29,122 nucleotides of DNA from Tolypothrix carrinoi HA7290-LM1 (GTDB lineage: Bacteria; Cyanobacteriota; Cyanobacteriia; Cyanobacteriales; Nostocaceae). Below, piece by piece: positions 1-12,291 of this stretch (position 1 is its first letter; the number at the start of each line of letters is the position of its first letter). Below the pieces are notes generated by a model, which worked only from the letters and a program-made list of their open reading frames with translations, made no database searches and was not told where the DNA came from. The stretch lies in the NCBI GenBank assembly GCA_019358935.1, contig JAHHIK010000102.1, positions 1 to 29,122 of the forward strand, given 5' to 3'. The translations under genes and the position numbers were made by a program.

Positions 1-195
1 CGCCGAAAACTTGCGTTAAGGTTGGTTCTGTCATAAAACGGGTTTTTCATGAAGTGGATAAATCTGTTTTAATCAGCAATTAAAACTATGTAAATATTCC
101 GGTTATATGTAAATTCGGAACTATTACTGAGGTGCTAAAAAGTAGACACAGATTAGATTAGAGCCATATTTAACTACTAGCTAAATATACAAATA

Positions 196-230
196 TTCCG
201 GTTTAACCAGTGCCAATGGTTAAATCGGAA
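196..230. other. Putative tyrosine-recombinase site (14-bp inverted arms, 7-bp spacer)
   Basis: TTCCGGTTTAACCA-GTGCCAA-TGGTTAAATCGGAA (1 mismatch), 20 bp upstream of the recombinase. A degenerate related copy lies at ~92-120 (AAATATTCCGGTT...AAATTCGGAA). Confidence 0.45.
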
Positions 231-250
231 GTAGTAAAAGGCAAAAAACT

Positions 251-834
251 TTGAAAACAGACAGACATGGACAGGCGTGTTTACTGTCCGATACTGACTA
301 TTCTAAAATCCGCAAGCAAATCAAAAGCAGGAAATATAAATTACTTTTTGATTTGGCTTGGTACACTGGCGAAAGATGGGGTTCGTTAGTGCAATTGCGG
401 ATTGAAGATTGTTACAACCCTTCGGGGGAGTCCTAGAGATCATATCAATTTTCGCGCTCGGACTCGCAAAGCTAGCCCGGACGGGAAACGTCAAACGCGC
501 CAAGTGTTTGTCCATGCGGTTTTACGGGAGTCGTTGCAAAACTATAAGCCAGACTCAAATTCAAGAAAGGATGTTTGCCGATCGCACTGGGGATAAACCT
601 ATAACCCTCAGATGGGCTGATATGATTCTCCGCGCTGCCGTCGAAAAAGCCGGCTTATCGGCTAAGGGGATCAGCACTCACAGCACCAGGAGGAGTTTCA
701 TTACCAAGCTGCACCGCAACGGGACTGACTTATACACAATCAAAAAAATCACCGGGCACAAGGATTTTAAGGCTTTGGAGCGTTATGTGGAAATTGACTC
801 TGACCGTGTAAAAGGAGCAATCGCTGCGTTATGA
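251..834 (+). pseudogene. Small tyrosine recombinase (phage integrase family, ~190 aa) with two frameshifts
   Basis: Three frames join into one protein (251-~430, ~430-565, ~570-834). Catalytic motifs: YTGER (R), STHSTRR (HxxR), ITGH (H), LERY (Y). Confidence 0.85.
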
Positions 835-1299
835 AAATTCTCCTATTTCACCAGCACCTACAACGGACAAGCGAATTAATTTCAGGACGCCTGCTGTTAC
901 TAGACTTGGAGTTGACCAATATTGCTAACATCTACATTGCCACGTCTGGACTGCCCAATAATCAAAAATTTGATTGCCTCTCGTCCCCAGGCAGAGGACC
1001 GATTCCTGCCAATAACGTTATTGGCGTTGACTGCTACCAAGTTTCAACCACACCTATATATATGCCAGAAGTTAAGGGCGTTGAGGGTAACTTTTACAAA
1101 ATTAACCCGCATATGGTGACGGTTAATGGCGTGGAGCGCGGTGACTTTGGGGTGCATTTTGACGCAAATCTACCGGGCAGCAGCGGGTGCGTAGTGCTGC
1201 GAACATCTGTAGGTTGGCAAGCCTCCCTTGAAAGACATGAAAGTTTTATTAACCTTTGGGGTTAAACAAGTCCCCTTATTAGTGAGTTACTGCCGATGA
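831..1299 (+). CDS. Tlde1/L,D-transpeptidase-like hypothetical protein; C-terminus probably frameshifted
   Basis: Motif GDFGVHFDANLPGSSGCVVL resembles the H...SxGC active site of the YkuD/Tlde1 fold. A plausible C-terminus KDMKVLLTFGVKQVPLLVSYCR* lies in another frame and ends at 1299. ATGA overlap with the recombinase stop. Confidence 0.55.
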
Positions 1300-1466
1300 A
1301 CGCATTGTTTTTAGAAATTGAAACTTTTTACGACAAGCTGCAAGCAGGTGAATTTGATGAACCCCTCAAGCTAGCAGGAGTGTTGCAAAAACTGTCAGAT
1401 GCCGCTTGGTCACAGGTTGAGGAGCTGTACCAGTCGGCAACTCGCACACTCTGCGTGAGGTTATAG
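1296..1466 (+). CDS. Small hypothetical protein (56 aa, MNALFLEIETFYDKLQAGEF...)
   Basis: ATG overlaps the upstream TGA (ATGA coupling) and the frame is open to TAG 1466. Below the ORF-track size cutoff. Confidence 0.55.
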   Translation: MNALFLEIETFYDKLQAGEFDEPLKLAGVLQKLSDAAWSQVEELYQSATRTLCVRL

Positions 1467-1600
1467 TGGTTGCGCGCGTAAAGTCCACGCCTGCGATCGC
1501 AGTAGCGTAACGCGTTCGCAAAGCGTTGCCGTACTCGGCATCGCCTTTTCTCTAACTTTAGTACTTTGGCACAATTGGACAAAAGCGTGAGTTGCGTGGA

Positions 1601-2153
1601 CTAACTCCTAAAACTTCGGATCAGCGCGATTATCTCCTGGGGGGATTGTCCGTCAAGAATTGCTTTTTCTACTGCCTGCTTTTTTGACTTAGCCTTATTG
1701 CTTGTGACACTGCCAATATAGACGCGGTGTAGTTTCCTACCCTCCATCCAGGTGTAACGATAATACCAATATTTATTGGTTCCTCTCTCTACCCAGTATT
1801 TTTCAACCGAATGGGTAGCTTTTTCATCACTTAGTTGAGAGTATAATTTCCGCTCGTGTTGGTGAGCAAACTTTAAGGTATCTGATGTAACTTGCTCACC
1901 AACACTTTTACACGCAGAGTCAGAATCAGGAAGTTGCTCACCAACACTCGGTTTTTGTTGGTGAGCAAAAAGTTTATCTACGCCAAAGTCGAGAGCCTTG
2001 CACTCAACTGATGGCAAGAATGCACACGTTACAGTATCGCTGGTTTCCTCTATTTCATCCCAGTAAGGATCGTGTTGGGGAGCAGGGATTAGAGACCCAG
2101 GAGAAGGGGACCAGGGGAGAAAGTCGTCGAACGCTTGATAGTTGCGTATACAT
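1601..2153 (-). CDS. Mobile-element hypothetical protein with SVGEQ/FAHQ repeats and aromatic/basic C-terminal domain; one frameshift near the start
   Basis: The frame of ORF 1601..2017 stays open upstream (FDDFLPW...APQHDPYWDEIEE). ATG at 2153 gives MYTQLS in the adjacent frame. C-terminus contains KYWYYRYTWMEGRKLHRVYIGS. Confidence 0.6.
1856..2085. repeat. Five copies of a 13-14 bp motif (G)TGTTGGTGAGCAA in mixed orientation
   Basis: Copies at 1856-1869 (+), 1892-1905 (-), 1934-1947 (-), 1956-1968 (+) and 2072-2085 (+, degenerate). Confidence 0.85.
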
Positions 2154-2353
2154 TATGACTATCCCTTATGTAGTGGCGCTTTGCAGCCCAAAATGTAGAA
2201 TTCCCGCTGGTTCTAGCTTACGCAAAGTTGTATTGTTCATGGTAGATGTTTATTTTGGTCAAACTCGCCGGCATTGGGCGAGTTTTTATTACTTAGGTAT
2301 TGGTTGGAGCGTAGTTAGTAGTTAGTAGTTGGGCGATCGCGCCATTTAAAAAC

Positions 2354-2638
2354 TCATTGACTATGCGCCTCCGAACGCTTGGGCGGTCCAAAATCGTCTG
2401 GAAGTTGGTCTAGAGTTACTCCCAAAGCGCGGCATAAAGCTTTGGTCTGGGAAATAGTCAACTTTGGCTTGTCCTCTCCACTTTCCCAACGACTAATAGC
2501 TGATTGATTGAGACTTTTAGTCCCAGTCATATCAGGAATTTTTCTAGCCAAATCAGTCTGTGACAAGCCAACAGCTTCTCGAAGTATCTGTAGGCGGGGC
2601 ATTTCTTCTGGATTTTGTACACGCTTCTTTTTAGGCAT
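2354..2638 (-). CDS. XRE-family helix-turn-helix transcriptional repressor
   Basis: LREAVGLSQTDLARK...QSAISRWESG...LCRALGVTLDQL is an HTH_3/XRE signature. Confidence 0.9.
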   Translation of the reverse strand: MPKKKRVQNPEEMPRLQILREAVGLSQTDLARKIPDMTGTKSLNQSAISRWESGEDKPKLTISQTKALCRALGVTLDQLPDDFGPPKRSEAHSQ

Positions 2639-2651
2639 TCTAGCAATTTAT

Positions 2652-2696
2652 ATGCGTGTACGCATTGACAGCTAGAGCCGTTATGCGTATACTCAT
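2652..2696 (+). promoter_or_regulatory. Sigma70-type promoter overlapped by two palindromic putative operators
   Basis: TTGACA 2665-2670, 17-bp spacer, TATACT 2688-2693. Palindromes ATGCGTgtACGCAT 2652-2665 and ATGCGTatACTCAT 2683-2696. Confidence 0.75.
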
Positions 2697-3174
2697 AATA
2701 ACGACAACACAAAGACCCACCAGTTAAAACTGGCTACGCAAAAAGTGGAATTTTTTGTGAGTGGTCTTGCTTAAATTGTCTACTGCATAGTCTATTCATG
2801 CGAATTGAGGAGAGATGGTAGCCTCCTAGAAATGAAAGACCTACCAGCATGAAATTTTTATATGCAGATCATCAAGCCGCGAAACGTTATTCAACTTCGC
2901 GAGTGTTAACTGTGCTGTAGCTACAGACTGTAAAAAACCTTAGTAAGGCATTCTGCCCCAAGCCAGAGCCTATAAGTGGCGGGTGTAAGTGGGTGGCAAC
3001 AAGAGGTGCACGGGCAAGGCGGAAATAAGACCTGGGTGGAAATCCCATAGAGGTAGTCGTCGGGGTAGTGTCTCGACGAACAGTTTCACACGCAATTGTG
3101 TAGCTTTACACATGGAAAGAAGGAAGAGGAGCGATCGCGCTTCGGCCGCAAGCCGGCTGCACTTCCTAAACCTT

Positions 3175-3357
3175 ATGGAACAAAAAGGAAAGTACATCAC
3201 CAAAAGTAAACGCATAACATCACTTGAAAAACAAGTTGAGGAACTTCAAAAACAGATCGAGACTTTAACCATTTATCTGGATCGAAGTCACGAAATGCTG
3301 TTGCGTTCAAATCCGCGTTTGGCGCAATCATTGAGTGCGCGATTGGGAAGAAATTAA
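3175..3357 (+). CDS. Small coiled-coil hypothetical protein (60 aa)
   Basis: MEQKGKYITKSKRITSLEKQVEELQKQIETL shows a heptad pattern. ATG 3175 is preferred over the upstream GTG, which runs through hairpin-rich sequence. Confidence 0.55.
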   Translation: MEQKGKYITKSKRITSLEKQVEELQKQIETLTIYLDRSHEMLLRSNPRLAQSLSARLGRN

Positions 3358-3824
3358 TCCACCACCACCAAAACCCAAACAACCGAAACAACCAAGACAG
3401 CGGTATAAGACATTACCTTTATTACCCCGTGCCGACGCCCGTTTTAACACGAGATTCAAACGGGCGGCTCGTCGCCTCACCCCGCCCCAACAAAGTTTAG
3501 TTGTAAGTTGAGGACTCGCCTATGAGGAAATAATGTTCGCTTTCTTTTTCAAATGACTACAATTACCATTTTTTGCCTGGGGGATTAGTTTTAATCCCCC
3601 TTATTTAGGGACCTGCCAATCATGAACGAAACAACCCAAACAGACACAAAAAAACCCAATTCGCTTACGTCAACGCGCGATCGCTGTACTTACTTTCAAA
3701 GAAGAAGAAATTAGGATTGTTAGTCGATTCTGTGACTATGTACGACGCCACTTGTTACGCAAGTATACTCCGACAAACTAACCCTCACTCTAAATTTTCA
3801 GTGAGATTTTTATCTACCACTACC

Positions 3825-4457
3825 TATGCCGATTAAAAGCATCACCTACAAGCGGGTTTGTGAATCTGGGGAACATTGATGTCAAAAACCCTTGAGGCTA
3901 CTTCCATCATCATATGAAGGGGGTTGCAGGTTTCGGGTGTGGGGTGTAGGGAACCCCATAATTAAAATCAGGGGTTTCTCTCCAAGGATGCCGTATCTTT
4001 CGACGGCAGTCCCACCAGGTGGGGAAACCCGCCCACGCGGCTGCCTCCACTACGTGCCTCAAAATACATCTTTTTTATTTTTCCATACTTAAAAGTACTT
4101 GCTCTGTACCCTTTCCTTCGGGGCTTTTTCGACATGCAACCCCACACCCCACAACGCCACTTGCTTACTGCTGTGGAAACCCGTCCACCGCAGTGGCTCC
4201 CCCACACCCCACCCCGAAGGGGCTGGTCAATGAAGGTGACGATGCGGCGCGGGAAGCGCGAGGAGTTGATTGCTTTTGTGGAGGGAAATCTTTTTCCACC
4301 CCAAGCCGTAAGCGCTCTTGTAGAAAACAGCGCTTTCCAAGCCCTCGCTGCAACCGCCCAAAGCCAAGCCGAAACTCTTGAAATTGCAAGAAGCATAGAA
4401 ACTGCGTTACCCGAACCATCCGCTGACACGGAAGACACAAACATTCCGCCATTTTAG
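3825..4457 (+). pseudogene. Element hypothetical gene interrupted by a ~310-bp repeat insertion
   Basis: 5' part MPIKSITYKRV/NLGN/SKTLEATSII (frameshifted). 3' part NEGDDAARE/EELIAFVEGNLFPP...DTNIPPF*. Confidence 0.5.
3914..4236. mobile_element. Non-autonomous MITE-like composite repeat insertion
   Basis: Flanked by ATGAAGG direct repeats (3914-3920, 4230-4236). G-rich left end (GGGGTTGCA, GGGTGTGGGG) is complementary to C-rich right part (TGCAACCCC, CCCCACACCC). Two internal GGAAACCCG(C/T)CCAC units. Confidence 0.55.
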
Positions 4458-4778
4458 GGAACACATTATAAACGCGATCGCGCTCAGGTACATTCGACTG
4501 TTGCTGTTGCGCGATCGCCTACTCCAAAAAATCGATTGCTGAAATTAGAGTATGAGCCATATTATCATTTCTGTGCCGTCTCTGTACACCTGTAAACTAC
4601 CGAGCCAAGGTTGGATTAATGAGCGCCTTAATCCGCCAAGTTCAATATGACGATTTAAATTATATCCCCATAGCACTTGTGACATAGACGCGCTCTGTAC
4701 AAGACTTGCTTGATAATTCTGACAAGCAAAGGGGTTTTACGATCGTCACAGATTAGGCATGATCGGAGGTTTGAATTT

Positions 4779-5000
4779 ATGCGATTAGAAAACGATGAAG
4801 TCGTAATGGATAAGGAGGAATTTTTAATTAATTCCTTACTTACAGGAATTGCCTGTCAATTACTCGCAAAAATTAGGAAAGAGGAAGTAAGTCATTGGAT
4901 GGAATGTTTATCTGAAGAAGCAGCTGAACAATACAAACAAATGTCTCCCAAACAGCGCGAAGACATGATTAACGCCTACGTACAAATCAGCCAACAATAA
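4779..5000 (+). CDS. Small hypothetical protein (73 aa)
   Basis: Shine-Dalgarno GGAGGT at 4765-4770 before ATG 4779. Stop TAA 4998-5000 abuts the hammerhead. Confidence 0.65.
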   Translation: MRLENDEVVMDKEEFLINSLLTGIACQLLAKIRKEEVSHWMECLSEEAAEQYKQMSPKQREDMINAYVQISQQ

Positions 5001-5057
5001 CGCCTGACGAGGCTACTTAACCCAGTAGCCGAAACGTGGGATTGTTCCCACGTCGCG
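5001..5057 (+). ncRNA. Type I hammerhead ribozyme
   Basis: Stem I CGC 5001-5003 / GCG 5055-5057. Core CUGACGA 5004-5010. Stem II GGCUACU/AGUAGCC (7 bp, loop UAACCC). GAAA 5031-5034. Stem III CGUGGGA/UCCCACG (loop UUGU) plus A-U. GUC triplet with predicted cut after C5054. Confidence 0.9.
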
Positions 5058-5250
5058 GACCCTTGTCCAAACCAGTCATGCCCCAAAAATGCGTGGGATT
5101 GCGGCGTTGAGCTTGAAAAGCGCCATTTATGGCGTTTATTCTTTCAAGCGCAGCTATCCCGCCTCACTTGGGTTTCCCAGTTCGTTTAGGAGTGAATCGC
5201 GCCCCTTTTATGTGGGGCGTTAGGGTGATTCTGGCGAGAAAAAACTGGGT
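5055..5250 (+). ncRNA. Candidate IS110 bridge-RNA-like structured RNA
   Basis: Small 5' hairpin GGAC/GUCC (5057-5068). Domain 1 at 5082-5172 (CCCAA/UUGGG, GGGAU/AUCCC, GCUUGAAA/UUUCAAGC, GCGCCA/UGGCGU). Domain 2 at 5176-5249 (CCCAGUU/AACUGGG, internal loop, GAAUCGC/GUGAUUC, GCCCC/GGGGC). Lies directly upstream of an IS110 gene. Confidence 0.55.
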
Positions 5251-5294
5251 TTAACCGTAACCAAAATAAACATCTACACCTAACAACACAAACC

Positions 5295-6693
5295 ATGACA
5301 ATTGAATTAAAAACTCTGGGAGTTGATGTTTCAAAATCATCTGTCACAGTCCATCTACTATCATCTTACCCAAAAGGAGGTTTAAAAAGTTATTGGGAGA
5401 AAACTAGGAACAAAGCATCAACTTTCTACCCAACTTTCTACAGCAACCCGGATGCTAAGAAAAAACAGAAAAGTGCTTTTGACTTTGCTGATTATATATT
5501 TGAAAGTAAACCGGATGTAGCAATTTTAGAGCCGACGGGCAATCATTACTCACGGCTCTGGGCGTCGATACTCAAAAATTTGGGGGTAAAAATTCGCGCT
5601 TGTGGGACATATCGAATTGCGGCGCTATCGTGGCTCTAAGAATCTGCCGGCGGAAATCCGACGCAAAGTCGTGCTTTGGCAATGGCTGCATATCCCCTCG
5701 ATGTGGAACACCACACAGAAGACGGGGAATTAAATTTAAGATACTTTCTCATGCACCGTCCTGACCCTATCGACGAGTTAAGAGAACTGTGTCAGCAATT
5801 GGAACATCTCAACCGCGTGCAAAGCCCGATAATTAATTATGCACGGCAAATGTTAGCTTGGCAGTTAAGAGAAGTTGCTCACCTCAAGGTGAGCAACTAC
5901 TTTGTCGGGTTTTGTTCCCCCATTATGGGGATGGCTTGCGGGTTTGGAATCTGAGGTGTCACCGCAAAGCTGGAAACGGTTGCAAAATCAATATAGTAAA
6001 TCGATAGCAATTGCAAAAGGTTTAAATATTGACCCGCTGTTGCAGCTTCATGCAAGTTGGGTGTGTGATATCAAAAAAACAGAGCAGCTCTTGGAAGGGG
6101 AAATTGGCAAACTGTTGTCTGACGACTGTTTCAAAATCTACAACCAGATTTTTGACTTATTTGGTTTTGGATTACGAGTGCGCGAAGCGCTTGCTTAGTC
6201 GAATTTATCCGTTTGAGGCTTTTTTAAGTGCCGACGGGAAACCGTTGATTGAGTATGAAGTCAGAGAAGTTAAGAAAGTGGAGAAAGAGAAGAGCGATGG
6301 GGTGAATGTAATTAAGCGATCGCCCGGAGATATCAAACGGGTGAAGCGCAACTTTACTCCGCGATGCATTTAAAATGCGGATCGGAATGGGGACAGTGCT
6401 GGAGCAATCGGGTGATGAGTTGGTAGAAAAAGCAATACTGTTCGGCACTGTGTCGAATGGCTTTATGGCAGTATGTTTTGTGCCAAGTTGAGACTGGTAA
6501 ACTGAAGCCCAACTCGGTTACAAAGCGGCTTTTGGACTACAAAAACGCTTTAAAAAATCTCACCACCCCTCAAGGCAAGCAATTGCTAAATGGCAAGCAC
6601 TTGCAGGGTAAACTTATGGCGAAAGTTGCAAACATGCTTTTTGATGAATTGGTCAAAGCGATCGCGCACCCAACGCTCCAACGCTCCAACTAA
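5295..6693 (+). pseudogene. IS110-family DEDD recombinase/transposase with multiple frameshifts
   Basis: N-terminal RuvC-like motifs LGVDVSK, ILEPTGNHY and KSDA..ALAMA (~5657-5690). Central helical region. C-terminal Transposase_20-like AFKMRIGMGTVLEQSGD with the conserved SG serine. Spread over at least six frame segments. Confidence 0.8.
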
Positions 6694-6904
6694 CTAGAGT
6701 GAAAGTATAGAAAATAATGCTTCAAACTTCTCACAAATATTAGAGGTAATTACTACTTTATGCGTAATTCTGTCATTCTAAGCCAAATCTTAGCACAAAA
6801 AACGAAGTTGCATCTTACGCTTTATTTCCTCTTGCTCGGTAGAAACTCACTATAACAGACTTTCATTGTGTAATTTCTCTAATAATTAACATACACGTCT
6901 CGAT

Positions 6905-9384: not shown

Positions 9385-9630
9385 AGGGGGAGAGGGGGGG
9401 ATGGGGGGATGGGGAGAGGGGGGGACGACTTGGGGAGGGGGGGACGACTTGGGGAGTATTATTCAAAAATTCTCCTTGTCTCCTTGTCTCCTTGTCTCCT
9501 TGTCTCCTTGTCTCCTTGTCTCCTTGTCTCCTTGTCTCCTTGTCTCCTTGTCTCCTTGTCCTCCTTGTCCTCCTTGTCCTCCTTGTCCTCCTTGTCCCCT
9601 TGTCTCCTTGTCCCCTTGTCTCCCTTGTCA
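9385..9630. repeat. Short tandem repeat tract: G-rich units, then (CTTGTCTC)n 8-mers and (CTTGTCCTC)n 9-mers
   Basis: Visible tandem array at ~9470-9628 and G-run repeats at ~9385-9455, downstream of the protease stop. Confidence 0.9.
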
Positions 9631-9650
9631 AGAAAGGAAGGTGCAAAAAT

Positions 9651-11110: not shown

Positions 11111-11545
11111 ATGGCAACCACATCTAATCTTCAGGTGACAATTTCCTTATCAGACCCGGATTTAGATGACCAGGAGTTGCAAGCAGAAGTGGAAAATTTG
11201 CTACCGCAGGTTAGAGAAGTGGATGGGGTAGAACAAGCAGATTTAGTGGCAGCCACAGAAACCCCGCGAAGTGCAAAGGCTTTCGGTGGCTTTTTGTGGG
11301 GAATGTTAAGTGCAGAAGTCAAACCAGCCAATATAAAAGCTTTGTTTGGATTTTTGAGCGATCGCTTCGGCAACAAACCAATTAAGCTAGCACTTAAAAC
11401 TCCTGACGGCAGAGAAATCAACTTAGAAGCCAGTAGTCGCAAAGAGTTTGAATTCGCTATGCAGCAAGCGCAGGATTTTCTCAACAATACCGAAAATACA
11501 TCAAACAGTAAAGATGGCGAAGGTAGCACTACTGATCGGGGTTAG
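11111..11545 (+). CDS. EACC1-like small protein upstream of a caspase
   Basis: Acidic N-terminus (DPDLDDQELQAEVENL), P..AK.GG motif and hydrophobic helix. Overlaps the caspase start, an arrangement typical of EACC1-caspase pairs. Confidence 0.6.
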   Translation: MATTSNLQVTISLSDPDLDDQELQAEVENLLPQVREVDGVEQADLVAATETPRSAKAFGGFLWGMLSAEVKPANIKALFGFLSDRFGNKPIKLALKTPDGREINLEASSRKEFEFAMQQAQDFLNNTENTSNSKDGEGSTTDRG

Positions 11546-12291
11546 TGAATATAAACATGGTTTAAACCCGCTACCAAGTGCTGTCAAAGATGTCGAAGCG
11601 ATGCAGCGAGTTTTAGCAAACCCAGAAATGGGTGGTTTTGCTGAAGCAGATATCACGGTGCTGAGAAATCCCCAACCGGACGATATCGCATATGCTATAT
11701 ATCATCTGTTTGCCGATCGCCAGAAAGATGACCTGCTGCTGTTTTACTTTTCTGGGCATGGCATTAAACATGACAGAGGTAAGCTTTATCTGTCAAGTTG
11801 TGCCACTAAAAAACTAAATGGCAAGCTAGTAACACCCTCAGCCGTTGCAGCTAGTGTTTTGCACGATAATATTAACGATAGCCGCTCTCAAAGACAGGTA
11901 ATTATCCTGGATTGTTGTTTTAGTGGAGCGATCGCCCAAGGCATGACCGTCAAAGATGATGGTAGCGTAAATGTGCAAGAGCAGCTAGGCGGTAAGGGAA
12001 GGGCAATCCTCACTTCTTCCAGTTCTACCCAGTACTCATTGCGTCTTGAGTTAAAACTTACCCCGGAAGTTGCTGACGCGATCGTGCGCTGAAGTTCAAC
12101 AACCATTACAGGAGTATCAGCGGAAATTAGCAGAGTACGAGGAAACGCTGCTTGAGGCAAAAGAAGCTGAGACAACCCTAAGCGAAACTACGCTCAATGA
12201 CCTGAAAGACTATCAGCAACATCTAGGGCTGAAAGATGAAGATGTAGCATCAATAGAAGAACGAATTATTGGGCAGCGAAAACCGACGTAA
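11514..12291 (+). pseudogene. Caspase-family (peptidase C14) protein, internally deleted and frameshifted
   Basis: MAKVALLIGVSEY, YFSGHG (His), IILDCCFSG (Cys). The domain stops abruptly at SSSSTQYS, joins a helical segment, shifts frame near 12085 and ends at 12291 without an effector domain. Confidence 0.75.

Follow-up and report, generated by a model that had tools for sequence, protein, structure and literature searches.

A decayed virus-like element of filamentous cyanobacteria with an IS110-family recombinase and a bridge RNA as its probable integrase

An IS110-family gene closes the rightward operon of a prophage-like segment at the start of contig JAHHIK010000102.1 of Tolypothrix carrinoi HA7290-LM1, which raises the question of whether it is a stand-alone insertion sequence or the integrase of the segment that it ends. 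The window analyzed here is the whole 29,122-nt stretch, contig C102 of the source genome (G000) from its first base; numbers with G, C, L and F denote genomes, contigs, recombinase loci and element protein families. The original prediction, made from the letters alone, had proposed a prophage-like element that may integrate or excise by means of this IS110 recombinase. We consider it probable that the segment belongs to a temperate, virus-like element from filamentous cyanobacteria, 10–17 kb in size when complete and decayed in this copy, in which an IS110 recombinase and a bridge RNA act as integrase. The ends, the GAA core, the matches of guides to target and donor, and the shared gene layout are established by sequence comparison. 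Intact relatives were used for the analysis because the window copy is broken.

Positions 1–6703 of the window are the right part of a mobile element whose left part lies on contig C52 of G000. Window position 1 is the end of a contig and not of the element, which is therefore cut off on the left. The segment from 54 to 6709 is collinear with an element in G001. In both G001 and G008, the host DNA following window position 6704 is joined directly to DNA that is found on C52 in G000, and this empty site carries a single GAA and no part of the 1–6703 element. Thus, the whole element is missing there, and not only the 5.0–6.8 kb part, whose clean absence from related elements would have spoken against the original prediction. 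The left junction in G000 reads host-GAA-TCCCC and the right junction TAGAGT-GAA-host, so that the GAA core is common to both junctions and single in the empty site, as for IS110 bridge recombinases. The elements of G001 and G008 sit elsewhere, with identical ends. That of G008 splits a transposase-like reading frame, which is restored across one GAA when the flanks are joined. A left-end profile search of G000 gave 19 matches on 17 contigs. Several left ends (C21, C40, C45, C120, C145 and C22, C55, C119) follow the same repeated host sequence, which indicates that some guides target repeats.

A target loop was parsed in 88 of 96 recombinase loci. For the right flank, 14 of these (11 with an unparsed donor loop and three without a right end) and one duplicate were dropped, leaving 73, in which the donor guide alone served to call right ends. 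At positions +1 to +6, the right guide agrees with the flank in 70, 68, 60, 63, 59 and 22 of the 73 loci, where about 20 each are expected by chance. The mean is 4.68 matches of 6, compared with 1.77 ± 0.13 for shuffled pairings (maximum 2.27 in 10,000 shuffles), and 52 of the 73 loci match at 5/5. The left flank was analyzed in 64 loci with at least 9 kb upstream; in 43, a left end 8–17 kb upstream is preceded by a 5/5 match to the left guide (null 1.2, maximum 6 in 2,000). When only the target guide is used, 54 of 74 loci yield a right end (null 2.9). In 52 of these 54, the preceding six bases are the motif predicted by the left guide of the donor loop, and guide and right end fall into three covarying classes. 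Targets follow the consensus T-N5-GAA-N5 (T in 44 of 45). The window's guides match their own site at 5/5 on the left and 4/5 on the right; among the 119 other G000 sites with the window's left half, none reaches 4/5 on the right.

Covariation of guide and flank is the test by which bridge RNAs have been defined (PMC11208160; here and below, cited papers are represented by their accessible portions). Since the guides match both flanks of 10–17 kb elements, an IS110 system appears to move the whole element. The proposed role of IS110 as integrase is thus supported for the family, with the caveat that the enzyme gene of the window copy is broken. In G070 (C10, loci L132 and L170), a perfect 15,397-nt tandem dimer has a right-end/left-end junction between its copies and 6/6 matches on both outer flanks. 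No donor junction of this kind was found in G000. At L171 and L225 (G075:C1), a right end directly adjoins a sequence that resembles the left end of another element.

It is extremely improbable that a stand-alone IS110 inserted by chance at the end of an unrelated prophage remnant. NCBIfam does file the protein as an IS110 transposase, and G008 has a 1.9-kb derivative (L034:14476-16362, on G008:C11) in which the left end runs directly into the latter half of the recombinase gene, followed by a right end. As it has only half of the gene and no RNA, it is a deletion product. Canonical compact IS110 elements have an end RNA that is read from a junction promoter, whereas here the left end lies 8–17 kb from the RNA. 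No left end is near the gene in 87 of 88 loci (the remaining one has a left-end motif within 2.5 kb upstream, without a guide match), and the far left ends refute a stand-alone origin. A tyrosine recombinase gene is located upstream in 60 of the 65 loci with at least 9 kb of sequence, and 12 of 14 more distant loci carry core genes of the element. The original prediction had named multicopy stand-alone occurrence as a refutation, and this test came out in its favor. For the most divergent recombinase (L240, G471:C64), a hammerhead is present, a motif resembling a left end lies 2.4 kb upstream, and 8.7 kb of sequence contain no core gene; this locus is a candidate short or stand-alone form.

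The intact G001 orthologue of the recombinase (458 aa) scores 463.8 bits against NCBIfam NF051857 (cut-off 180) and matches PF01548 (E = 9e-7); PF02371 was not detected in this protein. In all 19 sequences compared, which come from two clades, D11, E79, D122 and D125 of the RuvC-like DEDD domain are unchanged, as are S368 and the S368-G-D motif. By analogy, S368 is the putative catalytic serine. A profile search of PDB returned only ISCro4, as a weak match (E = 0.47). The two clades (about 455 aa and about 395 aa) are about 40% identical to each other. Matches to the recombinase were identified in 137 of 301 genomes of the source's family and in 31 of 301 genomes sampled across the phylum, all of the latter in the same class. 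Named relatives of the window's last gene are in Nostoc, Aulosira, Tolypothrix, Plectonema, Dendronalium and Dulcicalothrix records. A scan of G000 with NF051857 identified 24 pieces, one of which is a whole gene.

Just before this gene, window positions 4990–5300 fold better than shuffled sequence (z = -4.9). Judged by its motifs and pairing, the RNA at 5001–5250 is a hammerhead followed by a two-loop bridge RNA, in line with the ribozyme or RNA that had been read here from the letters. The hammerhead core (CUGANGA, GAAA and NUH with three stems) lies directly before the bridge RNA in 80 of 86 loci, and self-cleavage is predicted after C5054; in the window, the loop II pairing partner is damaged. 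An Rfam scan of the window found no family at the gathering threshold, the best E-value matches being due to chance, and no Rfam hammerhead model matched even at E ≤ 5. Hammerheads also occur in phage operons, as a type I core with loop II tertiary pairing in a polycistronic transcript. Those described here differ in their fixed place before a bridge RNA and, for the window copy, in falling below all Rfam thresholds.

An alignment of 29 RNA copies of the 455-aa clade (of 42 extracted; these are related sequences and not independent) contains hammerhead stems II and III, the loop II pairing and two stem-loops with internal loops, and is 95.6% paired. Of its 38 pairs, 16 changed on both sides, which is above all 500 shuffles and all slid controls, so that the stems covary. 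The first loop matches the insertion site, and the second matches the element's own two ends. Distant homologues (L213, L217 and L218, 1150–1500 in each) keep the hammerhead, followed by RNAs with repeated units and without GAA-type loops; this appears to be a different guide design. At L076 (G223:C1), the ribozyme is preceded by a second target-loop-like hairpin, which may be a former or reserve guide.

No target is shared among the 41 two-ended elements whose left flank matches. On average, guides differ at 5.3 of 10 positions in seven pairs with at least 90% gene identity, and at 6.6 of 10 in 23 pairs with 85–90% identity. G000 offers a perfect site to only 13 of 82 foreign guides, but such sites are occupied by 32 of 45 two-ended elements. 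In G031, the sole differences between two copies along 1,472 nt are two neighbouring guide bases, which in each copy agree with that copy's flank; in two G012 copies, the right guides likewise vary together with their flanks. Our default reading of this turnover is strong selection on ordinary mutations. We consider it unlikely that these are a small cyanobacterial virus family, with virion proteins of no known fold and RNA-guided integration, that rewrites its target guide to fit each new site. Hints in this direction are the G031 pair and the good fit of guides that differ between close copies and rarely have a perfect site in a foreign genome. Both G031 copies are still one base short of perfect, which argues against rewriting. 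In G438, a single guide is common to two copies, of which one sits in a 5/5 and the other in a 4/5 site; this argues against obligatory rewriting. A converse process, in which host flanks are rewritten to fit the guide, was rejected: the window's site is identical in the empty locus of G001, and the left guide of G001 matches the empty locus of G000.

The 42 complete units (10.1–17.1 kb) have one layout. From the left end, this is a possible holin, a leftward operon, the tyrosine recombinase in the middle, F2, F3, a repressor, rightward genes, the RNA and the IS110 gene. The leftward operon encodes proteins of no known identity and ends in the small possible holin (F11 in 21 and F22 in 12 of 42). 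A repressor switch is present in 40 of 42 elements (XRE in 11, RHH in 29, never both). Other virus-like traits are matches to collagen tail fibres and occasional amidases. All features that the original prediction had listed in the window are present. The XRE repressor gene, proposed there as a control of recombination, is intact, the type being present in only 11 of 42 elements. A divergent sigma70-like site at 2665–2693 has 11 of 12 consensus matches (a consensus match only; the best of 19 sites, with 11 expected by chance). The run of small co-oriented open reading frames is collinear with the intact G001 element, the IS110-like gene is the last before host DNA, and the tyrosine recombinase consists of the catalytic domain only.

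Several observations weigh against a provirus that is integrated by RNA-guided recombination. The right flank matches at 3/5 or less in 12 of 73 loci (two of which are element-to-element joins), no matching left end is present in 19 of 64 loci, and the G001 element disagrees with its guide on the left flank. In the 5–9 kb available upstream of L240 and of two G000 copies, no core gene is present. No free circle, RNA, cleavage or excision was observed. In most elements, no lysis enzyme was recognised next to the tyrosine recombinase, and no relatives were found in IMG/VR (protein scans) or among GenBank phages. Capsid, portal, terminase, Zot and replication proteins were not recognised among the family representatives scanned (Pfam, PHROGs, NCBIfam, profiles). 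Neither the Zot/pI ATPase nor the small membrane coat protein of Inoviridae was found among these representatives, and an unrelated AAA-like ATPase is present in 6 of 42 elements.

HK97 capsid, portal and terminase gave no sequence match, and the folds predicted cover two left-arm families, one of them at low confidence. Folds of F27 (pLDDT 77) and F14 (pLDDT 52) had no match in BFVD, and F27 had none in PDB (best Z 4.2). In the ESM Atlas, F4 matched cyanobacterial clusters without names and a single viral cluster, likewise unnamed, at TM 0.68, and F8 gave only scores below 0.8. A 122-sequence profile of F14, which is unlike F27, matched nothing in PDB or PHROGs, and profiles of F3 and F8 had no PDB match. 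Such blanks do not mark the folds as new. A set of 23 junction-pattern matches in IMG/VR was set aside as chance, as a single weak match to the tyrosine recombinase was the only sign of an element gene in them. No spacer against the elements was identified in a crude CRISPR scan of G000 (44 units).

Given no nameable capsid, packaging or replication protein and no relative in the virus collections, we infer a provirus from gene layout, and regard it as quite probable. Of the earlier term "prophage", the layout thus stands, and no capsid gene was identified to complete it. The same RNA-guided ends could instead belong to an expanded, cargo-bearing IS110 or to an integrative element similar to a plasmid, with a left operon that makes a structure of another kind. 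This is rather unlikely. It would account for the missing virion hallmarks and the absence from virus collections, and IS110 loci of up to about 100 kb with cargo have been described (10.64898/2026.08.14.744561). However, 42 elements keep one gene order, in both of the recombinase clades that are about 40% identical, unlike piecemeal cargo; the repressor switch and the tail-fibre-like and amidase genes also speak for a virus, and no conjugation or resistance family is present among the scanned representatives.

A tyrosine recombinase is encoded in all 42 complete elements (193 aa in intact relatives), with the R-K-H-R-H-Y residues conserved in 40–42 of them, and F2, with its weak match to an arm-binding domain, is present in 41. 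These features would suit a tyrosine recombinase that, with F2, is the real integrase or excisionase, with IS110 as a passenger. We find this very improbable. The gene is at a median relative position of 0.51, beside its own 14-7-14 site, and not at an end adjoining an att site as in tyrosine-integrase proviruses. The element ends share only three bases, and the 41 two-ended elements have 41 different RNA-read targets, which a protein-only recombinase cannot explain. The upstream 14-7-14 inverted repeat is present in 34 of 42 complete elements, always with a 7-nt variable spacer (null 1.2). Most likely, the tyrosine recombinase resolves dimers, such as that of G070, at this internal site, by analogy with tyrosine resolvases that have an adjacent internal site (TnpI/IRS or Cre/loxP). 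As in those systems, two inverted arms and a short asymmetric spacer adjoin the gene, together with an accessory site. Unlike them, the putative resolvase has 193 aa, without a core-binding domain in the same chain.

Taken together, RNA-guided integration would proceed as follows. On induction, the rightward promoter would read through the early genes, and the hammerhead would cut the transcript, freeing the 5' end of a bridge RNA that would be too far from the joined ends for a junction promoter. Recombinase and RNA would then join right end to left end at GAA to form a circle, which would be inserted at T-N5-GAA-N5 sites read by the guides. Dimers would be resolved by the tyrosine recombinase at the internal 14-7-14 site, and the products of the leftward operon would assemble into some kind of particle. 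The IS621 complex is weaker at excision than at insertion (PMC13626964), and for its excision the donor half may suffice, with a single-stranded circle as possible product (10.64898/2026.08.31.748434); either trait could apply to the cyanobacterial element. Composite cases such as that of G001 could stem from half-matches or from exchange between copies. At L029 (G001:C3), the start of a GNAT gene is indicated by the right flank and by both guides, and the left flank comes from elsewhere; this locus would be either a composite of two insertions or a rearrangement.

As judged from its reading frames, the window copy is dead and cannot make the IS110 enzyme. Compared with relatives, the IS110 gene is broken at seven places (with respect to both G001 and G008) and the tyrosine recombinase gene at two, and most of the small genes are also frameshifted. 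The isolated events in the window element comprise 23 of +1 and 4 of -1, and 15 of the 23 come with at least three neighbouring substitutions, as if six bases had replaced five. Controls gave +1 to -1 ratios of 14 to 15 in host DNA, 5 to 3 in an intact pair and 5 to 1 in a dead copy on C49. Patch scars of this type (about five bases to six) are present in dead G000 copies (window 1–6700, C49:55400-58880, C98, C127, C142 and C21), and none were seen in host genes. One and the same spot of the IS110 gene is scarred in the window (6434) and on C142, although the replacement bases differ between the two. These scars could be misfires of guide rewriting. Assembly error was rejected as their source because contigs of runs X1 and X2 keep nine scars unchanged; the runs are from different studies, X1 may be the source of the assembly, and the nine confirmed scars do not settle those inside the IS110 gene. 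Contigs of run X1 extend over the element and not over its host flank, a gap that carries no weight as evidence.

IS110 enzymes are thought to integrate and excise the inoviruses Nf of Neisseria, Af1 of Acinetobacter and phiOH16/Zuza of Thermus (PMC11437467, PMC11209303, and Kawai 2005 as cited there). IS110 as a phage integrase is thus already known; apparently new, by comparison with the literature searched, are the gene set, the ribozyme-led guide and the site-by-site turnover of guides. As in inoviruses, the IS110 gene is at one provirus end. In contrast to them, the elements described here are larger (Af1 is 7.2 kb), with an unrelated gene set and no recognised Zot or coat gene, and have a second recombinase with its own site and resolved guides, whereas the accessible accounts of inoviruses name no RNA.

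The system resembles IS621 (PMC11208160) in its DEDD residues and putative catalytic serine, two-loop RNA with left and right target and donor guides, short core and right-end/left-end donor junction. It differs in size and core (10–17 kb and a 3-nt GAA, compared with about 1.3–1.5 kb and CT), in the RNA, which is 8–17 kb from the left end behind a hammerhead and not under a junction promoter, and in a divergent protein that matches NF051857 and not PF02371. Expanded cargo-bearing IS110 elements (10.64898/2026.08.14.744561) likewise move as multi-kb units with guides matching their flanks. Their cargo is mostly plasmid-derived and variable and their ends are often half-matched, whereas here a virus-like layout is fixed and usually both flanks are matched. 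The accessible text of that work does not contain "cyanobact", "ribozyme" or "tyrosine".

A survey of bridge RNAs (10.64898/2026.10.21.760802) required PF01548 and PF02371 and searched 1 kb around the gene, criteria that would tend to miss the cyanobacterial loci; "cyanobacter" and "prophage" do not occur in its accessible text. In the accessible part of a survey of provirus borders (PMC13626063), IS110 is not mentioned. We found no published account of the element family, its gene set, a ribozyme-led guide or site-by-site guide turnover; subscription journals were outside the search, and the supplements of 10.64898/2026.08.14.744561 and 10.64898/2026.10.21.760802 may list such loci.

These elements provide a large natural set of bridge RNAs that move units of 10–17 kb; the core has 3 nt, and an integral ribozyme would release the guide. 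Such a set could be of use in cyanobacterial engineering. Close copies with different guides and known flanks make it testable how IS110 guides change target in nature. The elements also point to a virus-like family that has escaped notice, with members in nearly half of the sampled genomes of the source's family, where annotation shows only "IS110 transposase" and hypothetical proteins. The features of the window copy are given in Table 1.

Table 1. Features of the window copy and the ends of its element (window positions unless a contig is named)
Feature	Position	Strand	Evidence and remarks
Element left end	G000:C52:186-188	minus	Sequence comparison, empty sites
Inverted-repeat accessory or operator site, same arms as putative crossover site	97..120	.	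Sequence; direct-repeat family D9; motif in 30/42 complete elements
14-7-14 inverted repeat, putative crossover (resolution) site	196..230	.	Geometry kept in 34/42 complete elements
Tyrosine recombinase, catalytic domain only	251..834	+	Pfam PF00589; frameshifts near 421-431 and 568
Tlde1-like possible cell-wall enzyme, accessory	831..1299	+	Pfam PF10908 E 0.003, below cut-off; frameshift near 1225
Core gene F2, start not fixed	1601..2140	-	PF13356 (integrase arm-binding domain) E 6e-4, below cut-off; in 41/42 elements
XRE repressor, intact	2354..2638	-	Pfam HTH_3 E 9e-10; PHROG repressor families
Rightward promoter-like site, palindromic operator-like boxes over both hexamers	2650..2700	+	Consensus; palindromes read from sequence; putative function
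Small early genes: F5, F10, F20, F26, 104-aa gene	3175..5000	+	tblastn with G001 proteins; all but last broken
317-bp GC-rich repeat inside gene F10	3909..4225	.	Absent from G001; 38 blastn matches in G000
Type I hammerhead ribozyme, predicted cut after C5054	5001..5068	+	Core motifs in sequence
Target-binding loop; left guide 5110-5117 (AGCTT+GAA), right guide 5138-5145 (ATTCT+TTC)	5101..5153	+	Guide-flank matches
Donor-binding loop; left guide 5190-5198, right guide 5223-5231	5176..5250	+	Match right end and left end of element
IS110-family recombinase pseudogene, last gene	5295..6693	+	Seven +1 frameshifts near 5598, 5649, 5665, 5888-5910, 6183, 6358, 6434
Element right end, TAGAGT + GAA core	6695..6703	+	Empty sites G001, G008; host DNA from 6704

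The place of the accessory Tlde1-like gene is taken in other elements by an amidase or by nothing. HIP1 sites, from which long residence in cyanobacteria had been read, are indeed present (8 in 6.7 kb, or 1.19/kb, compared with 0.99/kb genome-wide); this density points only to a cyanobacterial family and not to long residence of this copy. In intact elements the density is 0.69/kb, compared with 0.82/kb in their flanks. Outside the element, short tandem repeats were identified at 9400–9650, behind a gene that we take to be htrA. Also present, at 11448–12092, is an open reading frame of 214 aa, presumably caspase-like and apparently cut short.

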